A stretch of 64,000 nucleotides of DNA from an uncultured Methanomicrobiales archaeon (GTDB lineage Archaea > Halobacteriota > Methanomicrobia > Methanomicrobiales > Methanospirillaceae), in assembly GCA_963758915.1 (NCBI GenBank), contig CAVWXH010000006.1, positions 33,436 to 97,435 on the forward strand. Direction: 5' to 3'. A program made the translations under genes and the position numbers. The notes under the pieces are model-generated. The model ran no database searches and was not told the DNA's origin. It saw only the letters and a program-made list of their open reading frames with translations. Position 1 is the stretch's first letter. Each line of letters opens with the position of its first letter. Positions 11,160-51,485 of the stretch are shown in pieces.

Positions 11160-11723
11160 TTATATCCACCAGTTCATGATTTTTTCAGTATCCTTCTTGA
11201 TACTTTCCAATGAACTGTCTGTTATCACATGGTCGGATCGTATGATTCCGATTATCGATGATCCCTTATGGGTGATATCAAATATTCTCATCCCCGGAAC
11301 AGAAGGGACCTCATCTGGTTTTAAGGCCTGGCCATAGTGTGCTGCATCATCCTGCCCACTTTCCCCGGTTGTTGCAATCATCAGACCGTCTGTTGTTGAC
11401 AAGGTTATTGCACCGAGATGGTATTTCGATGCAAGCGCATGGAGATTTCTTGAAATATCCCCGAGGTCCACAAGTTGTACCTTTTCATCCTGTTGTTTTT
11501 TTTCTGCAATGTCCCCATCTTTGATTTCTGCATTATCAGGAAACTGAGTAATAATCTCTGCTGGTGGTTTAATGTCCCAGATTTTAGCTGGCTCTTTTCT
11601 TCCCGCTCTGTGTTTTACCTGGTAAATCTTCATAAATAGCAGGATAATGATAATTGCTGCTATTGCTATGATCAGGATGATGACCGGAATGAATGATATC
11701 TGTCCTTGTAATATCGATTGCAT
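11160..11723 (-). CDS. Membrane-anchored protein with Roadblock-like C-terminal domain
   Basis: N-terminal TM then basic residues; LGAITLSTTDGLMIATT resembles the Roadblock/LC7 beta-hairpin. Confidence 0.6.
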   Translation of the reverse strand: MQSILQGQISFIPVIILIIAIAAIIIILLFMKIYQVKHRAGRKEPAKIWDIKPPAEIITQFPDNAEIKDGDIAEKKQQDEKVQLVDLGDISRNLHALASKYHLGAITLSTTDGLMIATTGESGQDDAAHYGQALKPDEVPSVPGMRIFDITHKGSSIIGIIRSDHVITDSSLESIKKDTEKIMNWWI

Positions 11724-11765
11724 GGTGTCTTCCTGCTTTAGCGCTTGTTTTTCTGGAATTTATTC

Positions 11766-12458
11766 TTAATCTTCTCTCTTATCTATCAGGTGATCAAGGT
11801 CCAGGTGCTCGATGGTGACCTTACAGTTCTCCCGGATTTTTTTGGTCATTTCATCAATGTCCATATTATCGAGAGCCTCCAGGTCTCGGCCAATACTCGT
11901 CCCATCTTCTGCATGCCCATTTTCATTTGCCGGTTGCTCACCGGGAGATTGTGCAGTCCCGGAGGTTGAGACCTGCTCTGCAGCAGGTTTTTCGTTTAAT
12001 ACAGTTTCTGTTCCGTCGTGAAGACCTTTGTTTCCCTGTGGCTCAAAACGTACTTCAGGGACTTGATCTCCGGGAATGCCTTCCTTTTTCCTGATATCCG
12101 GGGTGGTCACCCCCGTTCTGACCTGCCTGGCAGGGCCCCTCCTGACAAAGCTCGGGAGTGCTGCATGCGGGTTAAATTCCCGCGCAAGATCGAGTTGAAC
12201 TGGGTTTAATGTTGTAAGTCCCGCATCGACCTTCATGTCCAGCATCTTTTGCATTTTCTGCCAGGCATGCTCCCCTTCAAGTTTGCCGTAATCTGCAATG
12301 ATATAAATCCCGGAATTGAGTACCAGGGTGCAGGTCTCTATCCCGGAAGTGATCGTGCAATAGCCGGTGAACCTGGTTTTTTCTATCTCATCAAGGAGTG
12401 AACGAAATAGTATTCCTTTCTTTATGGAATGGAATGTGCCCCTTGGGAGTTTCATCAA
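11766..12458 (-). CDS. PATAN/DUF2226-like domain protein with disordered linker and helical C-terminus
   Basis: MKLPRG start, FTGY, LVLNSG..IIA..LEGEHAW pattern. Confidence 0.65.
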   Translation of the reverse strand: MMKLPRGTFHSIKKGILFRSLLDEIEKTRFTGYCTITSGIETCTLVLNSGIYIIADYGKLEGEHAWQKMQKMLDMKVDAGLTTLNPVQLDLAREFNPHAALPSFVRRGPARQVRTGVTTPDIRKKEGIPGDQVPEVRFEPQGNKGLHDGTETVLNEKPAAEQVSTSGTAQSPGEQPANENGHAEDGTSIGRDLEALDNMDIDEMTKKIRENCKVTIEHLDLDHLIDKRED

Positions 12459-12583
12459 TAAGAGATATACAACGGCATATTACATAGTCCTTTTTAACAC
12501 AAGGTGTTTTAGGGGTTTTAATCACGGTGAAAAGAAAGAATTATCCAAGTACCCTTTTATCCCCAGATTGATGATTAAATAAC

Positions 12584-13675
12584 GGCTGGTATGAAAAACT
12601 CCGGCAAAACAATCTGAAAGACCACCTTTTTCATGCCCATCTATGAGCCAGAGGCTCATAGCACGCTCTGTAGAAATCATATCTTTGAGCAAAAATTGAC
12701 CTGATCGACCGAAAAAGCTAAGATACAGTGCCTCCTTACCTTGTTATGCTACTAACCCATAAGGAGGTAAAATAATGTCATCAAACCGGTGTATTCAGGT
12801 TTGTTGAATTATCGTCAGGTTTGATCAAAGATACGAGGATTCCACTTTATTCCTCAAAATATTCAAAACGGACTTACAATCAGCATCAATTGCTCATCCT
12901 CCTGCTTTTAAAAGTATATCTCTCTGAAAATTATCGGGATTCTGTCGAACTCCTGGAAACCATGGAGACATTAAAAGAGACAATCAACCTTAAAGAAATA
13001 CCTCATTTTACGACGCTTCAGAAGTTCTGCCAAAGTATACGATCAATTACCTTCACCGTTTTAATGAACCGGCTTATCAAAATGTTTTACGACTGGGGAG
13101 AACGAATTGCCTGCACCGCTATCGATTCATCCGGGTTCACAAGCTCATATGCCAGCCATTACTACTCCATCAGAACAGGAAATATCAGGAAAAGATTTCT
13201 TAAAACCTCAATCTCTATTGATAGCGACCGACAGATAATCACCGGTCTGAAAATAACCCAACATCACGTACACGATGTCCTCCACGCTGAAAAACTCCTG
13301 AAACAATGCCATAGAACCAGAAAATCTGAACTCTATGTTATGGACAAGGGATACGATTCAGAGGAGGTTCATCACCAGATCCGGGATACTATGGACTCAA
13401 TCTCTCTTATCCCGATACGTGAAAGAAAAAGAAAGCGGATTTCCGGTCATTACAGAAGAAAAATAATGATTTCATTCGAGTCTGATCTATACCATCAACG
13501 AAACAAGGTTGAAACCGTGTTCTCCGTATTGAAAAGAAAGTTCGCTGAAGCCCTTAAGGCGCGGAAATACCGACTTCAGGTTAAGGAAATAAAAATCAAA
13601 GCGATCCTCTATAACATCCCAAGAGCGATGACCTATTTTTTTATTCTTATTGTAATTGAGGAATTCTACAGAGCC
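12584..13675 (+). mobile_element. IS5-like insertion sequence with 8-bp target duplication
   Basis: TAAATAAC at 12576-12583 and 13676-13683; GCTCTGTAGAA at 12665 is the inverted repeat of TTCTACAGAGC(C) ending 13675; DDE transposase inside. Confidence 0.92.
12641..12661. repeat. Perfect 9-bp hairpin CTATGAGCC-AGA-GGCTCATAG
   Basis: Read directly; second copy at 19310-19330 with one G.T pair. Confidence 0.9.
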
Positions 13676-13678
13676 TAA
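12775..13678 (+). pseudogene. IS5-family DDE transposase, apparently frameshifted near the 5' end
   Basis: [25 protein letters not shown] motifs; ATG 12775 behind AAGGAGGT stops after 10 codons while the transposase continues in the +1 frame (ORF track start TTG 12821). Confidence 0.75.
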
Positions 13679-13774
13679 ATAACCTTGAATTAAAATAATG
13701 TTAGGAAACATATTTATCATCGTATACCAGAAATTCAGTTTAAATAGAGATGGTTTATATCGGGGAGATTCGGA

Positions 13775-14122
13775 ATGTTAAAGCAGATACTGGGTGAGTT
13801 CCTTAAGGTGGAGGGTGTTTCCGCAGCAGTCGTCGTTGGAAGAGATGGATTTGTGATAGAGAGTGCAATATCCGGAAAAATCGATATTGATGCATTAGGT
13901 GCAATGGCATCCACCGGCATGGGTACTTCGGAAGCCATGGGGAATGAGCTTGGTAAAGGGAACCTCGATCAGATGCTTGTAGAGCTTGAAAAAGGACCAA
14001 TCATTTTATCACCTCTTTCCTCAGATGAATTAATCGCAATAGTGGCAGATTCTACTGCCAATGTAGGAAGGATCAGGTACGAGTTGAAGAAGAACAAAGA
14101 ACGACTGATGGCTGCCCTATAA
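13775..14122 (+). CDS. Roadblock/LC7 (MglB-like) protein
   Basis: GVSAAVVVGRDGFVIES..DALGAM..LDQMLVELEKG..NVGRIRY; 115 aa single domain. Confidence 0.92.
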   Translation: MLKQILGEFLKVEGVSAAVVVGRDGFVIESAISGKIDIDALGAMASTGMGTSEAMGNELGKGNLDQMLVELEKGPIILSPLSSDELIAIVADSTANVGRIRYELKKNKERLMAAL

Positions 14123-14126
14123 TAAC

Positions 14127-14795
14127 ATGAATCTGCCGGAAGGGACCCATCTCGGGTATATCAATAATCCGCTTCAGGATACGGATGTGCAGCGGATAAT
14201 AGGCCATATAGGGCTGATAAAAACTACTGCTCAACAGGGTGAAGGGATCATCCTGATTGACAAGGGTAAAATAATTGCCGCTTCATTTACGTCAGGGGAT
14301 AAACTCTATTATGGTAACGGAGCGCTTGAAGTTATCAATGCGACCTCCCCGGAGAAGATGGAGCTTAACAGTTATACTGCAGATGAATACCAGGTTGCAG
14401 TGGAAATATGCCGGAATGAAAATCTTCTGCTCCAGGATGAAACCCATATACCCACAATCCCCGATCTTCTCGATGAGAGCGTACTGAGAAAAATTCTGGT
14501 CCAGCCGGGAGTGATCGCCGTATCGGCATTTTCAGAGGGGTTTTCAGTCCAGTCCCTTGGTAAAGCAGACTTTGACCAGGTTGCAGCGATGGCTGAAGAC
14601 CTGCTCAGGGCAGGAATAAAAATTGCAAAGGATATGAAAATTGGCCTGATCGACCAGATCATACTTGAAACAAATTCCGGGAAAATAATTATTGCTCCGT
14701 ATGGTGACCTGTTCCTCTGTGTTTTTACCGGGCCTGATGCAAACATAGGCCTGATACGGGTGGTCCTGAAGAGTATCCAGAGCGATGTCAGGTGA
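14127..14795 (+). CDS. PATAN/DUF2226-like domain fused to Roadblock/LC7 domain
   Basis: MNLPEG, IILIDKGKIIAA..YGNGAL; C-domain PGVIAVSAFSEG..DQIILET..ANIGLIR. Confidence 0.8.
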   Translation: MNLPEGTHLGYINNPLQDTDVQRIIGHIGLIKTTAQQGEGIILIDKGKIIAASFTSGDKLYYGNGALEVINATSPEKMELNSYTADEYQVAVEICRNENLLLQDETHIPTIPDLLDESVLRKILVQPGVIAVSAFSEGFSVQSLGKADFDQVAAMAEDLLRAGIKIAKDMKIGLIDQIILETNSGKIIIAPYGDLFLCVFTGPDANIGLIRVVLKSIQSDVR

Positions 14796-14912
14796 GATGG
14801 TGTGCTTTTGGTGGATCGGTTCTTCTTCTCCGGAGGGGTAATTATTTGAAGGTAGTGAAGGAAGATCCTTTTAATAATATAGCTCAGCGAATATCATCAA
14901 TGCTACACAACA

Positions 14913-17201
14913 ATGAATGATGATGAACTTGAGGAACAGGGGTTCCTGAAAAAAATTCTGGCGGCGAAGAAAGGTACTGGTAAGGCAGACCCCCCTTTAA
15001 AACCCGATGCAGAGACGAAGACGAATGATGTGACAGACATCGATGCTTTAATGAAACGTATCGGGGTCCAGAATGTCATTACTCCCCCCTCAGTGCCATC
15101 ACCCCCGGCACCATCCGGTCAGGTGGGTGCGGGAAAGGAAATCCCAGATGCAACAAGAATAGCTGTACCAGTATCCTCCCCTCCCAAACAACCCCCCTCG
15201 TCCGATTCCCCGCCCATTATGCAGTCTCCTCCCGCAGAACAACCTATTACGCACCTCGTAAACAGTGGACCTGCCCCGGTGACACGAGCTGCTGCAGCCA
15301 GGCCCGCGACTCCGGATACCCCGGTACCGGCTGTGAACGCTGCAAAGACGATGTGGTCTGATGATATTTCCGAACAGGATGAAAAAATTGTCAGCTTCGA
15401 CCAGATCAAGGGAATTAGTGGACTAATTCTCCCGAAAGGTGTGACGTTTGAGATAGACGAGGTACAGCTGAAGGGCCGCGCCTCGCGATTTACCATGGCA
15501 GACGGTAGTGTTCCCGAGGAGATCGATAAGATATGGCAGGCCGGACTCCCGTCAGGTGGCCTCTCCAGCATACAAATTGACCATGATGGGGATGGTTCTG
15601 CAGCTGCTGAAAAGGGTGGTTTCCGTAATAAATTCAACCTGTTCAAACTCATCAGGCATGAGACCGTGGAATACAACCCGAAAATCCACGGCCCGCTCAT
15701 AGATCTTGTAATGAAGCCAAGAGCTGGTGTTGAGGAGCTGGAGTTTTATCCTGTCAATGAGCCTTACGCCTATATCCGGGTCGTATATGACAATTCCACG
15801 CATGAGTACACCTATACCGTGCTTGAACCTGTCCTTTCGCCAGCGGAACTGGACCTTTTCTCAGAATTAAAAGAACGGATCTTTGAAAGACTTGATGTTA
15901 ATTCAAGGGATATTGTTCCCGAATTTGCAAGAAATACGCTTAAAAAAGTGACGGATGACATCATTGCAGATTATGGTCTTACCCTGACTCCAGTGCAGAG
16001 GGCAAAAATTCTCTATAATATGGAGAAGGAATTCCTCGGCCAGGGCCTGATTGACCCCATTATGCATGACAAATATATTGAGGATATCTCATGTGATGGT
16101 GTAAATTCGTCAATATTTGTCTACCATGCCCGCTATGAGTCAATGAAATCCAACGTGATATTCACTAACGCAGAAGACCTTGACTCATTTGTGACAAAAC
16201 TCGCCCAGAGGGCAGGGAAATATATCTCGATTGCTGAACCTATGCTCGATGCAACAATGAGCGACGGCTCCCGTATTCAGATGACGCTGGGCCAGGAAGT
16301 AACGGCACATGGGTCTACCTTCACTATCCGTAAATTCAGGGAAGAACCAATCACCCCTACAGACCTGATCGAATGGCATACTTTTTCTCCCCTTTCAATC
16401 GCCTTTCTCTGGCTTGCGGTGGAAACGGGGAAATCCCTGCTCCTCGCCGGTGGGACTGCATCTGGAAAGACAACAGCGCTGAACGCGATTGCGTTGTTCA
16501 TCCCTCCACTTGCCAAGATTGTCACCCTTGAGGATACAAGGGAATTAAAACTCCCGCATCCGAACTGGATCCCAAGTATTACAAGGGCATCGTTCGACTC
16601 TGAAGGCAAGGGGGAGATCGATATGTATGAACTCCTTCGGGCCGCACTCCGTCAGCGACCGGAGTACATCCTCGTTGGTGAAGTACGTGGAAAAGAGGCC
16701 CAGACCCTCTTCCAGGCGATGAGTACCGGGCACGTGACCTATTCAACAATACATGCAGATTCGGTTGCGAGTGTAGTCCACAGGATTGAAAACCCCCCGC
16801 TTGATGTCCCGAGAAATATGCTGTCCGCTCTCGACCTTGTCTGTGTCCAGGTTCAGGCACGGGTTGGTGGCCAGAGGATACGGCGCAATAAACAGATCAT
16901 CGAGATCCTCGATATTGATCCACGCACGAATGAGTTGATCACGAACGAAGTGTTCAAATGGAGACAGTCAACAGATGAAATTACCTATTCAGGTAAATCC
17001 TTCATATTAGAAGAGATCATGGAAGAGAGGGGATGGAATGAGGAGCGGATCAGGGAAGAACTCAAGAGAAGGCAGGAAGTCCTCGAGTGGATGCGCATCA
17101 AGAAAATCCGGCATTTCAGGGATGTCTCCAATATCCTTGTTTCGTATTTCAGGGATTCGGAAGCTGTGATACAAAAAGTAAGGGCTGAGCTGTATGAATA
17201 G
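14913..17201 (+). CDS. Type IV pilus/secretion assembly ATPase (FlaI/PilB family)
   Basis: IEDISCDG, FTIRKF, GGTASGKTT, LEDTREL, ALRQRPEYILVGEVRG, TGH..STIHA. Confidence 0.95.
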   Translation: MNDDELEEQGFLKKILAAKKGTGKADPPLKPDAETKTNDVTDIDALMKRIGVQNVITPPSVPSPPAPSGQVGAGKEIPDATRIAVPVSSPPKQPPSSDSPPIMQSPPAEQPITHLVNSGPAPVTRAAAARPATPDTPVPAVNAAKTMWSDDISEQDEKIVSFDQIKGISGLILPKGVTFEIDEVQLKGRASRFTMADGSVPEEIDKIWQAGLPSGGLSSIQIDHDGDGSAAAEKGGFRNKFNLFKLIRHETVEYNPKIHGPLIDLVMKPRAGVEELEFYPVNEPYAYIRVVYDNSTHEYTYTVLEPVLSPAELDLFSELKERIFERLDVNSRDIVPEFARNTLKKVTDDIIADYGLTLTPVQRAKILYNMEKEFLGQGLIDPIMHDKYIEDISCDGVNSSIFVYHARYESMKSNVIFTNAEDLDSFVTKLAQRAGKYISIAEPMLDATMSDGSRIQMTLGQEVTAHGSTFTIRKFREEPITPTDLIEWHTFSPLSIAFLWLAVETGKSLLLAGGTASGKTTALNAIALFIPPLAKIVTLEDTRELKLPHPNWIPSITRASFDSEGKGEIDMYELLRAALRQRPEYILVGEVRGKEAQTLFQAMSTGHVTYSTIHADSVASVVHRIENPPLDVPRNMLSALDLVCVQVQARVGGQRIRRNKQIIEILDIDPRTNELITNEVFKWRQSTDEITYSGKSFILEEIMEERGWNEERIREELKRRQEVLEWMRIKKIRHFRDVSNILVSYFRDSEAVIQKVRAELYE

Positions 17202-18117
17202 TTACGAACGCTTCTGCTTCAACCTTCTCGGAAAAAGAGTAAAAACCAGGCGTGAAAAATATTCGGAATTACGAAAAGATCTGCTTTCCGCCCGAATACA
17301 AAATCCCTTCGAGGTATATCTCTCAACAGCTATTGTGACCTCAGTCCTTGTAGGGCTTCTTGCAGCAGTTGGCATCGGAACGATCACCTATTTTTTTCAA
17401 TTGACAAAACTCGTCACCTATCGTGGAGCTGTCCCGGATGCACTCGTACCTGTTGCGAATTATAGTCTTTTCCTCGGGACCGTTGCGGTAACTATTATAT
17501 CTCTCCTGGTTTTTGGAGGGCTGACATATCTGATCTACAACCTCTATCCTGCAATGATCGCCGGAAACAGGCGAAGGAATATCGACGCAACCCTTCCATA
17601 CGCGATTAATTACATCACAGCGATGTCTACAGCGGGTATTCCCCCAGCTGAGATTTTCCGCCAGCTGGCAGACAGTAAAATATACGGCGAAAGCTCTGTA
17701 GAAGCCCGGTATATTGTGCGGGAAATTGACATGTTCGGAAAAGACCTCATTGATGCCCTTAGAATTACTTCTGTTTCCACGCCAAGCATGAGGATGAAGG
17801 AATTTATTCAGGGTGCGATGGGAAGCATCTCGAGTGGCAGTAACCTTACCGTTTATTTCCGGACAAAAGCCGAGCAGTATTCGGTCGAAAACCGCCAGAC
17901 CCAGAAACTCTTCCTTGATACCCTTGGTCTTATTGCGGAGTCGTATGTGACGGCGATGGTCGCAGGGCCTCTTTTCCTGATTATTCTCCAGTCAATTATG
18001 TCGGTCATCGGAAACAATGCGAATCCTATCTTTCTCTTTGTGATCATCTACATGATGATCCCGTTGGGGAGTATCATGTTCGTCATTATGATCAGTGCGA
18101 TGACTCCGGAGGGTTGA
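17194..18117 (+). CDS. Pilus platform membrane protein (T2SS-F/TadC/FlaJ-like)
   Basis: RRRNIDATLPYA..MSTAGIPP..G.DLIDALR..TPS; overlaps ATPase stop. Confidence 0.9.
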   Translation: MNSYERFCFNLLGKRVKTRREKYSELRKDLLSARIQNPFEVYLSTAIVTSVLVGLLAAVGIGTITYFFQLTKLVTYRGAVPDALVPVANYSLFLGTVAVTIISLLVFGGLTYLIYNLYPAMIAGNRRRNIDATLPYAINYITAMSTAGIPPAEIFRQLADSKIYGESSVEARYIVREIDMFGKDLIDALRITSVSTPSMRMKEFIQGAMGSISSGSNLTVYFRTKAEQYSVENRQTQKLFLDTLGLIAESYVTAMVAGPLFLIILQSIMSVIGNNANPIFLFVIIYMMIPLGSIMFVIMISAMTPEG

Positions 18118-18118
18118 A

Positions 18119-19147
18119 ATGAGCTGGAAAGATAAAATTCCGGGGTTTGGAGGAAAAAAAGGCCTTTCTGAAGATATACCTGGAAAACGTGTCAGTTATT
18201 CTGCTGATGCGGAACGTGAAATTGAAGAAAAGCTCGAATATGATCGCGCTCACAGGATGGGGTTTGGCCGGTTCATCAGGCATCCCCTGAAGGTGCTTAT
18301 TGAAAAGCCGATTAATATTCTCATCGTGTGCTTACCCGTTTCCCTGCTGTTCTTCCTCATCGGTACCGCGACCATGATCCGGCAGTATGGCCTGCCAGTG
18401 ATGTTCACGACAACAATTATTGATGATATCGCGGTCATTTCAATCCTTATTGCCATCGGACCCCTGGCAATTCTCTACACAAGGGAATCAAAACGAATTA
18501 ACAATCTCGAGGAAGCGCTCCCCAATTTCTTCCGTGATCTCGCTGGTATGAACGACAGCGGTATGACGCTCCCCAACGCGGTCCACCTCGTTTCTGCTGG
18601 TGAATATAGTACGCTTACACCCTACATTCGTAAGATGGACAGCGAAATGTCCTGGAATGTGCCATTTGTCGACGCAATGTACCGTTTCGGCCAACGACTG
18701 CGTACCCCCCTTGCAGACAGGAGTGTCGACCTGATTGCGAAGGCCAGCAGGGCGGGAGGAGATGCCAGCGAAGTGCTCCGGGCCGCGGCAAATGACACCT
18801 ATGAATTTGTGAAGCTGAAAACCGAACGGAACAACAACATGATGATCTATGTCGTTATTGTGCTTGTATCGTTCCTGGTGTTCCTGTTTGTTATTTTTAT
18901 ACTGGTCACGACATTTCTTACCACGATGGCAACCGCAGCCCAGGCAGGGGGGCCAGGCGGCCCACAGTTTATAAAAAACCTGAATCTTTTCTTTTACAAG
19001 AGGTTATTTGCCCATGCCGCCATGATCCAGGGAATATTTTCAGGGCTCGTCGCCGGGCAGATGGGTGAAGGCAGCGCAATTGCAGGCCTCAAATATTCGG
19101 CAATCATGTTGCTGATTGCATGGATTGCGTTCCGGTTCTTTGTATAA
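18119..19147 (+). CDS. Second pilus platform membrane protein (T2SS-F/TadC-like)
   Basis: LEEALPNFFRDLA..SGMTL..ASRAGG..GLVAGQMGEG..AGLKY. Confidence 0.9.
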   Translation: MSWKDKIPGFGGKKGLSEDIPGKRVSYSADAEREIEEKLEYDRAHRMGFGRFIRHPLKVLIEKPINILIVCLPVSLLFFLIGTATMIRQYGLPVMFTTTIIDDIAVISILIAIGPLAILYTRESKRINNLEEALPNFFRDLAGMNDSGMTLPNAVHLVSAGEYSTLTPYIRKMDSEMSWNVPFVDAMYRFGQRLRTPLADRSVDLIAKASRAGGDASEVLRAAANDTYEFVKLKTERNNNMMIYVVIVLVSFLVFLFVIFILVTTFLTTMATAAQAGGPGGPQFIKNLNLFFYKRLFAHAAMIQGIFSGLVAGQMGEGSAIAGLKYSAIMLLIAWIAFRFFV

Positions 19148-19253
19148 CCGGAACATTTCCTGCAGGATAACACATGGGAAATAAATCCCGTGTGAGATTC
19201 AACCCCTGGGATCAATTTTATACAGGGAAATATCGTGAAGAGTTGGTTTTTCC

Positions 19254-19594
19254 GGCTGGTATGAAAAACTACGGCAAAACTATCAAAATGCCAATTTTTT
19301 CATGTGAATCTATGAGCCAGAGGCTCGTAGCACGCTCTGTTGAAACCCTTCGGTGTCAAAAAAAATAAGAGGGAAATACGAAGACAGGAGGGGGTTTCAC
19401 CCCCTCCCTGCCCCACCCCCATTAAGATATTCTTCGGGCAGGGTTTCCCGAAGGCTCATTAAATTCAGAGTATTGGGGGATAGTCTCTATCCCAACCAGG
19501 GTCGCATAAGCACCGGGCCATGAACCCCGGGAGCGTAACGAAATTTAGGAATTCCCAATCTGCAAGATATATTTGAGAGGGTTTCAACAGAGCC
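19254..19594 (+). mobile_element. 341-bp MITE with IS5-like ends and 8-bp target duplication
   Basis: GTTTTTCC at 19246-19253 and 19595-19602; GCTCTGTTGAAACCCT at 19334 is the perfect inverted repeat of AGGGTTTCAACAGAGC near 19594; no transposase. Confidence 0.9.
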
Positions 19595-19609
19595 GTTTTT
19601 CCTTACCTT

Positions 19610-20698
19610 TCATACGATTCCCATATCCGAAAGCCTTTTTGGGAGATATTCCTTTGTTACAAAATCAAGCCCGCGGGCTGCAAATGCCTGTTGTTCAGAT
19701 TTCATCCCCATCTTGAGCTGTAAATTTATCTGTTCCCTCCAGTAGTCTGTTGCGAAACGTGGGTCGGTAAGTTCACTGTTGAGCGCTGCAATATCGCGTT
19801 CATTGAGATGGTCTGAAGGGAGGTTATAGTCCCTGATATCGCTTGGCTGCACACCTATGAACCTGGCCTGCGGGGTGGCAAGGATTTCTGACATATGGGC
19901 ACTTTTAATTGCCCCATAGGCAACACTTGCATAAATCCGGTAAGACCAGGGGTCGCCATCGGTGAAAACGACCACGGGGAGCTTGAACTGATCATTTATC
20001 CTGTTCAGGACACGACGGGTTGAACGGGCAGGCTGCCCCTTCAAATGAACAAGGATAGCCTTATAGTCCTCGTCAAACCCGTTCTCGATGAGCCGTGCAT
20101 ACATACCCCCGGTCTCGATTGCGATAACAAATCTGGCATCGTGGTCAAGGAAATCGATGGTATCGACATTGGTTGGTATCTGGTAACCTGCCTCTCCTAC
20201 ATCGTCCCGGCAATGGATCTTACGCTCTCCCCTCCGTGTGACTTCCTTCAATTCAATCGGACCAAATATTGTTGCCCCATCTTCTTCAGGCCGTAAATGG
20301 AAAGCTTCCCGTTGCATATCGGTCAGAATTTCAAGGTCTTCGATCAGGAAATTGCTTTCATCCTGTGCGCCGAATTTTGCTTTTTTCCAGCCTTCCGAGA
20401 TATAATACAACTCTCTTAACGTCGATGAACGGTTTTCGCCTATCTGTTTTTTCAAAAACCAGATAACCCACGCCATTTTCAGGATGTGCATCGCACTTTT
20501 TGCCGAACCTGCAGAGCGCGTACTCTCCTTTTCGCCGTATTTCCAGACTTCGCTCTCGTCATCAAATTCAATATTGTGTTTTGTCCGGGTTGGAAGGTTA
20601 ATTGAGGGGATGATCCCGCTCTTAATCTGGTCATACCAGTTTTGTGCAATTGTCTGCAGGCTTTCAATTGCCTTTATATTGAGGTCTGATTTAGACAT
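19610..20698 (-). CDS. top6A: DNA topoisomerase VI subunit A
   Basis: [27 protein letters not shown]. Confidence 0.96.
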
Positions 20699-51250: not shown

Positions 51251-51485
51251 GGCTTTGTTTAAATCCTGCGCAGTAAAAAAAAGAGGGGACTGTTGACAGG
51301 AGGGGGTTTCACCCCCTGCCGGCCCAACCCCGGATAAGATTGTCATTGGCAGGGTTCAATTGTGACCTCCCAGGAAATTTCAAAGATTTGGAGATCATTC
51401 TTTATTAAAACCGGCGTCGCCAAAGCGGGGGGCTTAGCCCTGAAAACCGGGGGATTCGTTTCATAATGATTCGAATCCGGAAGAT
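51251..51485 (+). repeat. Degenerate copy of the 19254-19594 MITE, lacking the 80-bp leader; right boundary approximate
   Basis: GGCTTTGTTTAAATCC at 51251 resembles the TIR; GACAGGAGGGGGTTTCACCCCCT at 51295-51317 is identical to 19383-19405. Confidence 0.7.

Follow-up and report, generated by a model that had tools for sequence, protein, structure and literature searches.

To our knowledge, the only parasites of a defined base within the terminal repeat of other transposons are autonomous bacterial elements of the IS1111 type, and Partridge and Hall are said to have described IS4321 and IS5075 in the IRs of the Tn21 family in 2003. Elements of the IS200/IS605 type have gene-less derivatives, known as palindrome-associated transposable elements. 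One account of the IS1111 group and IS110 describes site- and orientation-specific insertion in transposon repeats, with a short core on both sides and scarless excision, and gives the bridge RNA of IS621 as 177 nt in length, pairing with both target and donor (PMC11208160). For IS608, pairing between a guide and the cleavage site is set out in PMC3201880, and PMC8266576 presents REP/REPIN sequences as short non-coding repeats that form hairpins, occur in many copies and are believed to depend on RAYT (TnpA-REP) proteins, acting in trans, for their mobility.

The window considered here, a stretch of 64,000 nucleotides of DNA from an uncultured Methanomicrobiales archaeon, contains two elements whose left terminal repeats are interrupted at the same point by a short segment (Table 1). 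The first is an insertion sequence (IS) that belongs to the IS5 family, as seen from its DDE match, 12-nt repeats and 8-bp target-site duplication (TSD). Its transposase matches DDE_Tnp_1 (PF01609) at 6.4e-20 and NCBIfam NF033579 (IS5 family) with 203 bits against a cut-off of 140; the reading frame runs through the right repeat to a TAA stop that lies within the target duplication, and it is the sole intact DDE_Tnp_1 frame found in the genome of the window (G000). The second is a MITE. As the initial annotation had read them, both elements follow the order TSD-GGCT-(76/77-nt double hairpin)-GCTCTGT, with the 8-bp duplications, TAAATAAC and GTTTTTCC respectively, outside the outer GGCT. After the segment, the left end of the IS resumes as GCTCTGTAGAA (12665 onward) and that of the MITE as GCTCTGTTGAA, the right end of the latter reading GGCTCTGTTGAA when reverse-complemented. 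The mobile unit in the IS is 80 nt (77 plus one GCT), its borders being ambiguous by 3 nt (12585-12664 to 12588-12667). The annotation had also proposed that removal of the segment and one GCT would restore GGCTCTGT, and this exact form exists in a contig from another metagenome (X6), where the window IS lies at its own locus minus exactly 12585-12664, with three ambiguous letters (GCT) and G12584 joined directly to GCTCTGT at 12665; the evidence is one assembled contig of depth ~5 and not raw reads. The MITE relic at 51251, likewise as annotated, lacks the segment and starts GGCTTTGT.

Table 1. Coordinates of the host elements, the segment and its parts in the window
Feature	Position	Strand	Remarks
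IS target-site duplication TAAATAAC	left copy 12576..12583, right copy 13676..13683	.	8 bp; outside outer GGCT
Host insertion sequence, IS5 family	12584..13675	+	1092 bp; ~1012 bp canonical + 80-nt insert
Outer GGCT	12584..12587	+	bases 1-4 of the IS left terminal repeat, before the interruption
77-nt segment in IS	12588..12664	+	read in sequence
Hairpin 1, arms GGTATGAAAAA and TTTTTCATGCC	12588..12637	+	variable loop; from fold
Hairpin 2, CTATGAGCC-AGA-GGCTCATAG	12641..12661	+	followed by CAC 12662-12664
Inner rest of IS left terminal repeat, GCTCTGTAGAAA	12665..12676	+	without first G; preceded by last C of segment
IS5-family transposase ORF	12821..13678	+	285 aa from TTG
Right terminal repeat of IS, reverse complement GGCTCTGTAGAA	13664..13675	-	uninterrupted
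MITE target-site duplication GTTTTTCC	19246-19253 and 19595-19602		8 bp
Type A MITE	19254..19594	+	341 bp; ~261 bp core + 80-nt insert
76-nt segment in MITE left end	19258..19333	+	preceded by GGCT; 84% identical to IS copy
Inner rest of MITE left repeat, GCTCTGTTGAAA	19334..19345	+	
MITE relic, uninterrupted (empty) end GGCTTTGT	51251..51356	+	aligned part C6:84687-84791

The element is almost wholly composed of two hairpins in its 80 nt (77 plus one GCT). As single-stranded DNA, both segments of the window fold in this way (z = -2.4 for the IS copy and -2.8 for the MITE copy), and the window has two occurrences of the 24-nt motif of hairpin 2, where 100 shuffles gave none. The arms of hairpin 1 are kept between genomes and genera, while its loop varies in both sequence and length (~23-75 nt), and the two copies of genome G021 carry paired changes in the stem of hairpin 2 (CCATGATCC..GGATCATGG). 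Bases 12588-12589 (G, G/A) resemble in their behaviour a guide-like dinucleotide rather than part of a stem, and segment base 2 covaries with base 5 of the terminal repeat and not with its own hairpin partner. The segment starts GGTATGA and ends CATAGCAC, with GCT as the only flanking repeat. An Rfam search over 12400-19700 at E <= 1 gave no match, and neither a circularly permuted copy, with the hairpin-2 arms as termini, nor a circle junction was seen. The segment was also considered as a MITE of the host IS and rejected as such, having neither the terminal inverted repeats of that family nor an 8-bp duplication of its own.

Across the genome, nhmmer returned 56 segment matches, 49 of which extend from the outer GGCT into the inner repeat, many more than chance would produce. 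The genome holds ~50 copies, each between GGCT and (C)GCTYTGT of the terminal repeats of the host family, in several host types and always in one orientation relative to the host end; all full copies sit in transposon terminal repeats. Coexistence of ends with and without the segment, for which the annotation had suggested a search, is plain from these ~50 filled ends set against 102 exact segment-less ones, and the related ISs add 29 loci of which none carries it. Right ends are occupied as well as left ends: 11 of the 33 TSD-bounded elements have one filled end, the low-coordinate end in 5 and the high-coordinate end in 6, and in all 11 the 8-bp duplications are outside the segment. It is neither a fixed left end nor scattered over random sites, the two outcomes that would have spoken against the annotation. 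The segment is confined to the terminal inverted repeats of a single IS5-family IS and of the related MITEs in Methanoregulaceae, and within these to the tip, where it enters GGCT/YTGT between G1 and Y5 with a fixed orientation; the GCT repeat conceals the exact bond. No 8-bp duplication is made by the segment itself, and its insertion or loss is scarless around the shared core, with GCT on both sides.

The histories of segment and host are separate. Among 42 filled ends (861 pairs), segment identity reaches 95% or more in 26 pairs (100% in 8), and in those 26 the median identity of the adjacent 100 bp of host DNA is 0.37, equal to the overall background; over the 42 ends segment and host identities are uncorrelated (r = -0.004), and the most similar hosts (91%) have dissimilar segments (75%). 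High identity ends at GGCT on the outside and can end directly after GCT on the inside. The IS segment is 98.7% identical to segments in other hosts at C2:126720 and C3:420402, which are themselves identical and adjoin differing repeats. Similarly, the body of the window MITE is closest (91-93%) to MITEs without a segment at that end, and the nearest relative of its segment (98.7%) lies at C9:96399, in a MITE that shares only 88% identity in the body and is filled at the opposite end. Orthologous loci point in the same direction, with locus L012 of G010 filled and its counterpart in G000 (C9:271958) empty within the same MITE and the same flanks, and at least 8 orthologous MITE ends are clean cases in which one genome has the segment and another lacks it. 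Since the segment was found at 0 of 29 loci of related ISs (46-69% amino acid identity), whose paired plain ends lie ~1007-1017 bp apart, the filled IS is the derived state. The segment is therefore present or absent with base precision, and its spread among ends does not depend on that of the host element. The many sites and ends, the uncoupled histories and the empty and filled orthologues together identify an independently spreading, non-autonomous, site- and orientation-specific micro-element, and in this the genome-wide flanks support what the annotation had suggested, a tiny non-autonomous element inserting into IS and MITE ends at a GCT core. A further suggestion of the annotation is that such an insertion might immobilise its host.

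One base of the segment and one of the repeat go together by a rule. Segment base 2 and repeat base 5 occur as G/C in 39 copies, G/T in 22, A/T in 26 and A/C in 0 (Fisher p = 2.7e-9, which overstates the significance as the copies, through orthologues and subfamily expansions, are not fully independent). Of all segment-by-flank column pairs, these two columns share the most mutual information (0.355), more than base 2 shares with any other segment column (0.22). Searches with exact patterns gave A+C 0 times in 151 genomes of the family and A+T 20 times in 5 genomes, with 20 matches for G+C and 19 for G+T in five relatives; in G000 the counts for the base 2/base 5 combinations were 22, 2, 0 and 8. 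An A at base 2 is found repeatedly, in more than one subfamily of loops and also in a second genus. The sole genuine copy among 120 metagenome loci breaks the rule, with A adjoining C. In the window IS the position that pairs by this rule with segment base 12589 (G) is base 12668 (C). A Watson-Crick/wobble rule of this kind suggests base-paired target choice. The stems of individual copies decay without compensation, so the rule is probably set at insertion rather than maintained by later selection. Only one target position varies enough for covariation, and the 'helix' thus rests on one informative pair.

It is very probable that the segment is a separate non-autonomous mobile element, and we also consider it likely that this is an independent, site-specific element with target matching at the time of insertion, whatever the enzyme. 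A pairing-guided single-strand mechanism is put forward more tentatively, at somewhat less than even chances. The target would be chosen at insertion by pairing of the 5' G-R of the element, positioned just 5' of the foot of hairpin 1, with the Y-T that immediately follows the insertion point on its 3' side in the repeat; a G would accept C or T, an A only T. Given such pairing, the element would most likely travel as folded single-stranded DNA, which a putative enzyme acting in trans would cut and rejoin at GCT, much as in guide-directed IS200/IS605 transposition. The remaining specificity (at least 12 nt of the repeat) would perhaps come from a repeat-bound protein, for which the IS5 transposase, as the only intact transposase found in the genome, would be the obvious candidate.

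Comparison with the described systems shows where such a route fits and where it departs from them. The segment resembles IS200/IS605 elements in its hairpins close to both ends, its strict orientation, the precision of its loss and the absence of target duplications and of terminal inverted repeats of its own, and the base just 5' of the hairpin foot, which seems to match a target base, may be compared with the guide pairing of IS608. It differs from IS200/IS605 elements in its target, a transposon repeat of which 12 nt or more are needed where those elements use a site of 4-5 nt, and from IS608 in a hairpin foot that abuts the cut and in paired target bases that lie 3' of the insertion point. 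REP/REPIN sequences are also short, multicopy, hairpin-forming and non-coding, but they are extragenic, are not targeted to transposon ends and depend on a Y1 HUH enzyme, of a type not found in the genomes searched of the carrier family. MITEs of the same IS (types A and B) share with the segment small size, lack of genes, high copy number, dependence in trans, the same genomes and a similar age profile, whereas they have terminal repeats of at least 12 nt and 8-bp duplications and insert in both orientations at numerous sites; all of this is lacking in the segment, which occurs nowhere but within those repeats. The analogy with IS1111 drawn in the annotation holds for the terminal inverted repeat of another transposon as target, the fixed orientation, the flanking core and the scarless ends. 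It does not extend to a shared enzyme: PF01548 (IS110 DEDD) gave 0 matches in G000, which is 94% complete, while control genomes matched. The IS1111/IS110 elements are autonomous, more than 1 kb in length and equipped with a DEDD recombinase and a bridge RNA, whereas the 80 nt of the segment contain no gene and could not accommodate such an RNA, and the target matching of the segment apparently uses the DNA of its own end. PF01797 (Y1 HUH) likewise had 0 matches in G000 (94% complete), and a search of 25 genomes from the family holding all heavy carriers gave no Y1 in any of them, with matches in other families of the order. A longer version carrying a recombinase or transposase gene, which the annotation had thought worth seeking, was not seen. 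Segment orientation showed no association with local GC skew (p = 0.41), in a draft assembly where the skew is weak.

A variant of the best explanation is that the host IS5-family DDE transposase, bound to the repeat and so supplying the target specificity, itself moves the element; we regard this as rather unlikely. The transposase could be hijacked through repeat-like modules, GGCT+GGTATGAAAA resembling GGCTCTGTAGAAA and the hairpin-2 arms GGCTCATAG/CTATGAGCC resembling abutted ends, a resemblance between segment and repeat that is judged by eye only. The target coincides exactly with the binding site of the transposase, and G000, where the window IS is the only intact frame found, holds the youngest copies (8 identical pairs); among the copies sampled from G006 the best segment pair is 94.7% identical, among those from G010 92.2%, and no intact homologue was found in either genome. 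MITE bodies and segments also have similar nearest-neighbour identity profiles, with medians of 91.3% and 91.6%, and 9 of 73 bodies and 14 of 50 segments having a neighbour at 98% or above. However, the IS produces 8-bp duplications and has no orientation preference, as opposed to the 3-nt repeat and strict orientation of the segment. G007 and G020 have expanded segment subfamilies of their own and yielded no transposase homologue at E <= 1e-20, both being MAGs, in which IS copies are often unassembled, and the IS-rich genomes G001, G016, G026 and G030 gave no segment match.

Homology-driven copying, with no dedicated enzyme, is less probable again. Here template switching or short-patch gene conversion among ~200 repeat ends, during replication or break repair, would be anchored inside in the 12-30 nt repeat and outside in the 4-nt GGCT, with empty ends arising by hairpin-promoted slippage between the two GCTs. 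Hairpins between short direct repeats are classic substrates for slippage. The borders fall at the only sequence in common (GGCT, GCT), as the limits of homology alone would impose, and neither IS110 DEDD (PF01548) nor Y1 was found. Young segment pairs share base 5 in 20 of 23 cases, against 446 of 1012 other pairs, and base 9 shows no such excess (12/23 against 434/1012); the excess at base 5 could represent a very short co-conversion tract. Co-conversion nevertheless leaves the complementarity of bases 2 and 5 unexplained, with A/C missing, G/T allowed and the pattern recurrent across subfamilies. Base 5 already differs between repeats next to identical segments, so conversion tracts would need to end within 1-4 nt, and this in a homology of 12-30 nt. 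A return switch on 4 nt, taken more than 50 times with no aberrant donor-flank junction, also seems unlikely.

Scarcely credible is the alternative offered in the annotation of a composite left end, fixed or ancestral, in which the segment moves only with its host and is sometimes lost: the TSDs outside the segment in 11 of 11 filled elements, the X6 and X3 contigs that skip the whole window MITE, segment included, with one TSD copy (349 nt; 8 letters ambiguous), and the similar divergence of segment (84-88%) and body (87-94%) in three filled type A MITEs would fit it, and some filled elements may indeed also move as units, but it must be rejected as a general explanation in the face of 29 related IS loci without a segment, its occurrence at left or right ends, uncorrelated identities with identical segments in unrelated hosts, a window MITE whose body is nearest to MITEs with segment-less ends and whose segment is nearest to the opposite end of a distant MITE, and a window IS that exists at its own locus without it (X6).

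The reading that we prefer is that of an independent element that matches its target at insertion. Whether it stands for a new class of hyperparasite, an 80-nt gene-less foldback DNA that pairs its own 5' end with the tip of a repeat and is cut and pasted as a folded single strand, by an enzyme that belongs to neither of the known Y1-HUH and DEDD families or by an IS5-family DDE transposase hijacked into some new mode, is more doubtful; were it so, a change at base 2 would retarget the element. The segment is archaeal, gene-less and twelve-fold smaller than elements of the IS1111 type, and it is polymorphic in natural populations and recently active. Its filled and empty ends are natural markers for strain tracking, and the terminal repeats of ISs and MITEs that it splits mean that, in these genomes, about a quarter of the ends will be overlooked or given a wrong size by annotation tools which seek intact repeats. 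If the G/A-C/T rule reflects pairing, this would be the smallest known mobile DNA with its own target-reading determinant, and would imply either an unrecognised strand-transfer activity in methanogens or a new mode of action for an IS5 transposase.

The left ends of the IS and the MITE are built alike, GGCT being followed by a segment of 77 or 76 nt and then by GCTCTGT(A/T)GAA, and the right end of both elements reads GGCTCTGT(A/T)GAA without interruption; the end of a MITE relic elsewhere in the window is likewise uninterrupted. As single-stranded DNA the segment gives two hairpins with CAT between them and CAC after them (z = -2.4 and -2.8), and the motif of hairpin 2, found at two places in the window, is absent from all 100 shuffles. 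The double-hairpin segment that the initial annotation had described in these two left ends is therefore real, as the filled ends and the 8-bp duplications lying outside them are read directly in the sequence. An Rfam scan of positions 12400-19700 on both strands (E <= 1) returned no family. The IS encodes an IS5-family DDE transposase (PF01609, 6.4e-20; NF033579, 203 bits against a cut-off of 140). Its frame has no stop inside the IS and passes through the right terminal repeat into the target duplication (the two together 13664-13683), whose three leading bases supply the stop TAA. Open transposase frames in relatives range from 297 to 394 aa, a variation that is expected if the stop is set by the flank.

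Coordinates of the elements, ends and modules (G000 is the genome that contains the window)
Feature	Source	Position	Length	Duplication	Basis
IS	Window	12584-13675	1092 bp	8 bp, TAAATAAC, both sides	Read from sequence
MITE	Window	19254-19594	341 bp	GTTTTTCC	Read from sequence
Transposase ORF	Window	12821-13678			
MITE relic	Window	51251			
Twin filled ends	G000	C12:22040-22629; C13:4208-4600			
CGCT ends (examples)	G000	C3:65307; C9:49448			
Counterpart of locus L002	G000	C5:39501-41560	~2 kb		
Longest segment variant	G000	C9:104548-104819	~250 nt		
Type B end module	G000	C9:101329-101760; C5:73445-73883; C16:434283-434717			
Type B end module	Relative	L035:1440-2470			

Across G000 (18 contigs, 2.38 Mb, 94% complete) there are 50 merged BLAST matches to the segment and 56 profile hits (nhmmer), 49 of which span from the outer GGCT to the inner repeat and share one orientation with respect to the end; truncation, splitting or rearrangement marks the remaining seven. 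Behind the repeat lies DNA of various kinds, including the IS, left and right ends of type A MITEs, type B ends and others. The comparison of copies with and without the segment proposed in the initial annotation gives, by exact pattern, 29 filled inner ends and 102 segment-less ones, and right ends are also among the filled. When ends were paired, the 8-bp flanks agreed with at most one mismatch in 33 of 236 candidate pairs, comprising 22 with two plain ends, 11 with one filled end (five at the low-coordinate side and six at the high side) and none with two; in every TSD-matched pair the duplication lies outside the segment. A 1292-bp 'element' from the pairing script proved to be a chance pair of ends flanking a host gene. 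The twin loci on C12 and C13 share an identical filled end and flank, reflecting either a duplicated region or assembly redundancy, and one of them was left out of the counts. Among the segment-less ends, 25 of the 102 start with CGCT rather than GGCT, four have T and three have A at the first position, and the base before the inner GCT is C in 28 of the 29 filled ends. The CGCT ends may descend from filled ends whose inner repeat served transposition, or may go back to a type B founder effect.

The segment is not a fixed end of its hosts. Transposase homologues are found in 13 of 41 related genomes, and none of the 29 related-IS loci fetched from these relatives contains a segment match (E <= 1). 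Full-length related ISs have two plain repeats about 1007-1017 bp apart, which means that the window IS corresponds to a canonical IS with 80 nt added. Because plain ends are found in all related ISs, the filled form of the IS is the derived one. The segment itself occurs in 10 of the 41 related genomes, several of which have no transposase match, and an exact scan for hairpin 2 in one genome per species recovered only 10 stretches, all from Methanomicrobiales MAGs and mostly from Methanoregulaceae.

Segments and hosts have independent histories. Comparison of 42 filled ends (861 pairs) identified 26 pairs with segments at least 95% identical, eight of them identical, and in these 26 the median identity of the adjoining 100 bp of host DNA is 0.37, the same as for all pairs (r = -0.004). 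Two MITEs contain segment copies that match the one in the IS at 98.7% identity, and the most similar hosts (up to 91%) carry less similar segments (75-90%). For the window MITE, the body is nearest (91-93%) to MITEs without a segment at that end, and its segment is nearest (98.7%) to a copy at the other end of a MITE whose body is 88% identical. Identity stops at GGCT on the outside and, between two identical segments, directly after GCT on the inside, so the copied unit is 77 nt plus one GCT. Nearest-neighbour identities have medians of 91.6% for segments and 91.3% for type A MITE bodies, and reach at least 98% in 14 of 50 segments and 9 of 73 bodies; these similar profiles indicate that the two were active over the same period.

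Presence and absence can also be seen at the same site. When contigs of three other metagenome runs were aligned to positions 11500-20500, one contig of 372 nt (depth 4.9) from the run X6 joined 12348-12584 directly to 12665-12792, lacking exactly 80 nt with three letters ambiguous; it represents the IS of the window at its own locus, with the GGCTCTGTAGAA end intact. Contigs from X6 (side 255) and from a second run, X3 (side 22), skip 19246-19594, which is the whole MITE and one copy of its duplication; the MITE, segment included, has therefore inserted recently or is polymorphic. For 47 segment copies of two related genomes, G006 and G010, compared with G000 through their outer flanks (the three genomes looking about equidistant by flank identity), a script assigned 11 as filled in both, nine as empty in G000 and 27 as other. 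Six of the nine are clean by eye, each being a single MITE end that carries the segment in one genome and lacks it in the other (L012, aligned base by base, and L019, L021, L024, L027 and L032). Behind the repeat two of the nine show a different body, and one gives no comparison at junction level; two more clean cases, L037 and L038, came from the class of others. In a comparison asking whether segments at polymorphic loci are younger than those at shared ones, the medians were 0.896 and 0.876 respectively (n=10 each, an incomplete sample). Together, the independent spread and the exact 80-nt polymorphism bear out the suggestion of the initial annotation that a non-autonomous element inserts site-specifically into transposon ends at GCT. 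At L002 in G010 the segment and outer GGCT have no repeat behind them and G000 has about 2 kb with a transporter-like ORF, a difference that is probably due to a deletion beside a filled end.

The arms GGTATGAAAAA/TTTTTCATGC and CTATGAGCC/GGCTCATAG are conserved between genomes, whereas hairpin 1 has a loop that is wholly different in sequence and ranges from ~23 to 75 nt, and each genome has its own segment subfamily. Among 99 distinct copies no compensatory stem change was detected beyond that in shuffles, pairing being 88.6% against a shuffle mean of 89.0% for stem 1 and 89.4% against 88.7% for stem 2. The alignments thus offer no evidence for a structure maintained by selection in each copy, and uncompensated stem decay in individual copies is expected for selfish DNA. 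Searches for circularly permuted copies or a circle-junction motif gave nothing genuine, and for a longer, gene-bearing version the longest variant found has no ORF. In this variant an insert of ~170 nt follows the 3' arm of hairpin 1. The insert has TTTC(C)AATG and TTTTCATGG at its borders and resembles the type B module's tail, and the variant seems to be a recombinant with that module. The type B module, a second kind of end module, is ~93 bp, occasionally longer, starts with its own repeat (C/G)GCTCTGTAGAAACACACATGAACGGGAAGTTCAC, ends with TTTTCATGG and lies directly before GAAA(C/T)CC of a type A repeat; the sizes of the MITEs are consistent with a 261-bp core +/- 93 +/- 80. At one orthologous end G010 has the module and G000 lacks it. 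The module holds a foldback, TATGAAAA...TTTTCATG, similar to hairpin 1, which makes a relationship with the segment possible.

Segments have G or A at their second position (GGTATG or GATATG), and terminal repeats have C or T at their fifth, which directly follows the inner GCT. Pooled over G000, G006 and G010, the combinations are G/C 39, G/T 22, A/T 26 and A/C 0 (Fisher p = 2.7e-9, the copies being not all independent). The mutual information of these two bases, 0.355, is the highest of all segment-by-flank pairs, and that of base 2 with other segment columns is at most 0.22; base 2 shows no covariation with the base nominally paired to it in the hairpin (A faces C in 24 copies), and A is found in several loop subfamilies. 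Exact patterns in G000 number 22 for G+C, two for G+T, none for A+C and eight for A+T, a G+C excess that contrasts with plain G-first ends in the same genome, which mostly have T at base 5 (46 T, 24 C); five relatives give 20 G+C and 19 G+T. The A+C pattern has no match in 151 genomes of the family, and A+T has 20 matches in five genomes, one of them in another genus. A metagenome 15-mer scan, in which 119 of 120 loci among the matches listed were chance loci, contributed a single real copy, with A next to C. On present sequences the rule thus has one exception and concerns the only target position that varies. As individual copies are not kept by selection, the rule is read as set at insertion, with G accepting C or T and A accepting T, as pairing of the element's 5' G-R with the target Y-T would give. 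Strand and GC skew show no association (the skew is weak and the assembly a draft). In G006, exact-pattern copies at T-type repeats are seven forward and none reverse, and at C-type repeats one forward and eight reverse, on several contigs; the same patterns split 13/9 and 1/1 in G000.

The mechanism behind the observed site, orientation, borders, independence, polymorphism and complementarity rule would involve single-stranded DNA that folds and is cut and religated at GCT, the dinucleotide next to the foot of hairpin 1 serving in a guide-like role. The analogue is IS608, for which an excerpt of PMC3201880 describes pairing of guide and cleavage site. Template switching or short-patch conversion that copies the segment is a rival which explains the borders but leaves the complementarity unexplained. 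In a check for co-conversion by host class, C/A repeats were present in 3 of 9 filled and 5 of 75 empty type A left ends, numbers that are few and with both states among the empties. The recombinase inventory of G000, as searched, consists of the IS transposase and two fragments, four tyrosine-recombinase matches and one TnpB-like frame. As the target coincides with the site that the IS5 transposase itself binds, this enzyme is a candidate source of the long part of the specificity, although its normal products, with an 8-bp duplication and in either orientation, differ from those of the segment.

In behaviour the segment is closest to those IS1111-group elements that insert into Tn21-family terminal repeats and to IS110 recombination around a short core (both from an excerpt of PMC11208160), and in anatomy it is closest to hairpin elements of the IS200/IS605 type. 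The enzymes that define these groups were not detected, there being no IS110 DEDD enzyme in G000 (searched with PF01548) and no Y1 transposase in G000 or in 25 genomes searched from the carrier family; the segment also has neither the terminal repeats nor the duplication of an ordinary MITE. One limited literature search, which does not prove the element unpublished, returned no description of its like. The segment is best read as a hyperparasitic micro-element without genes that occupies the ends of transposons in methanogenic archaea, and its pairing rule is testable.
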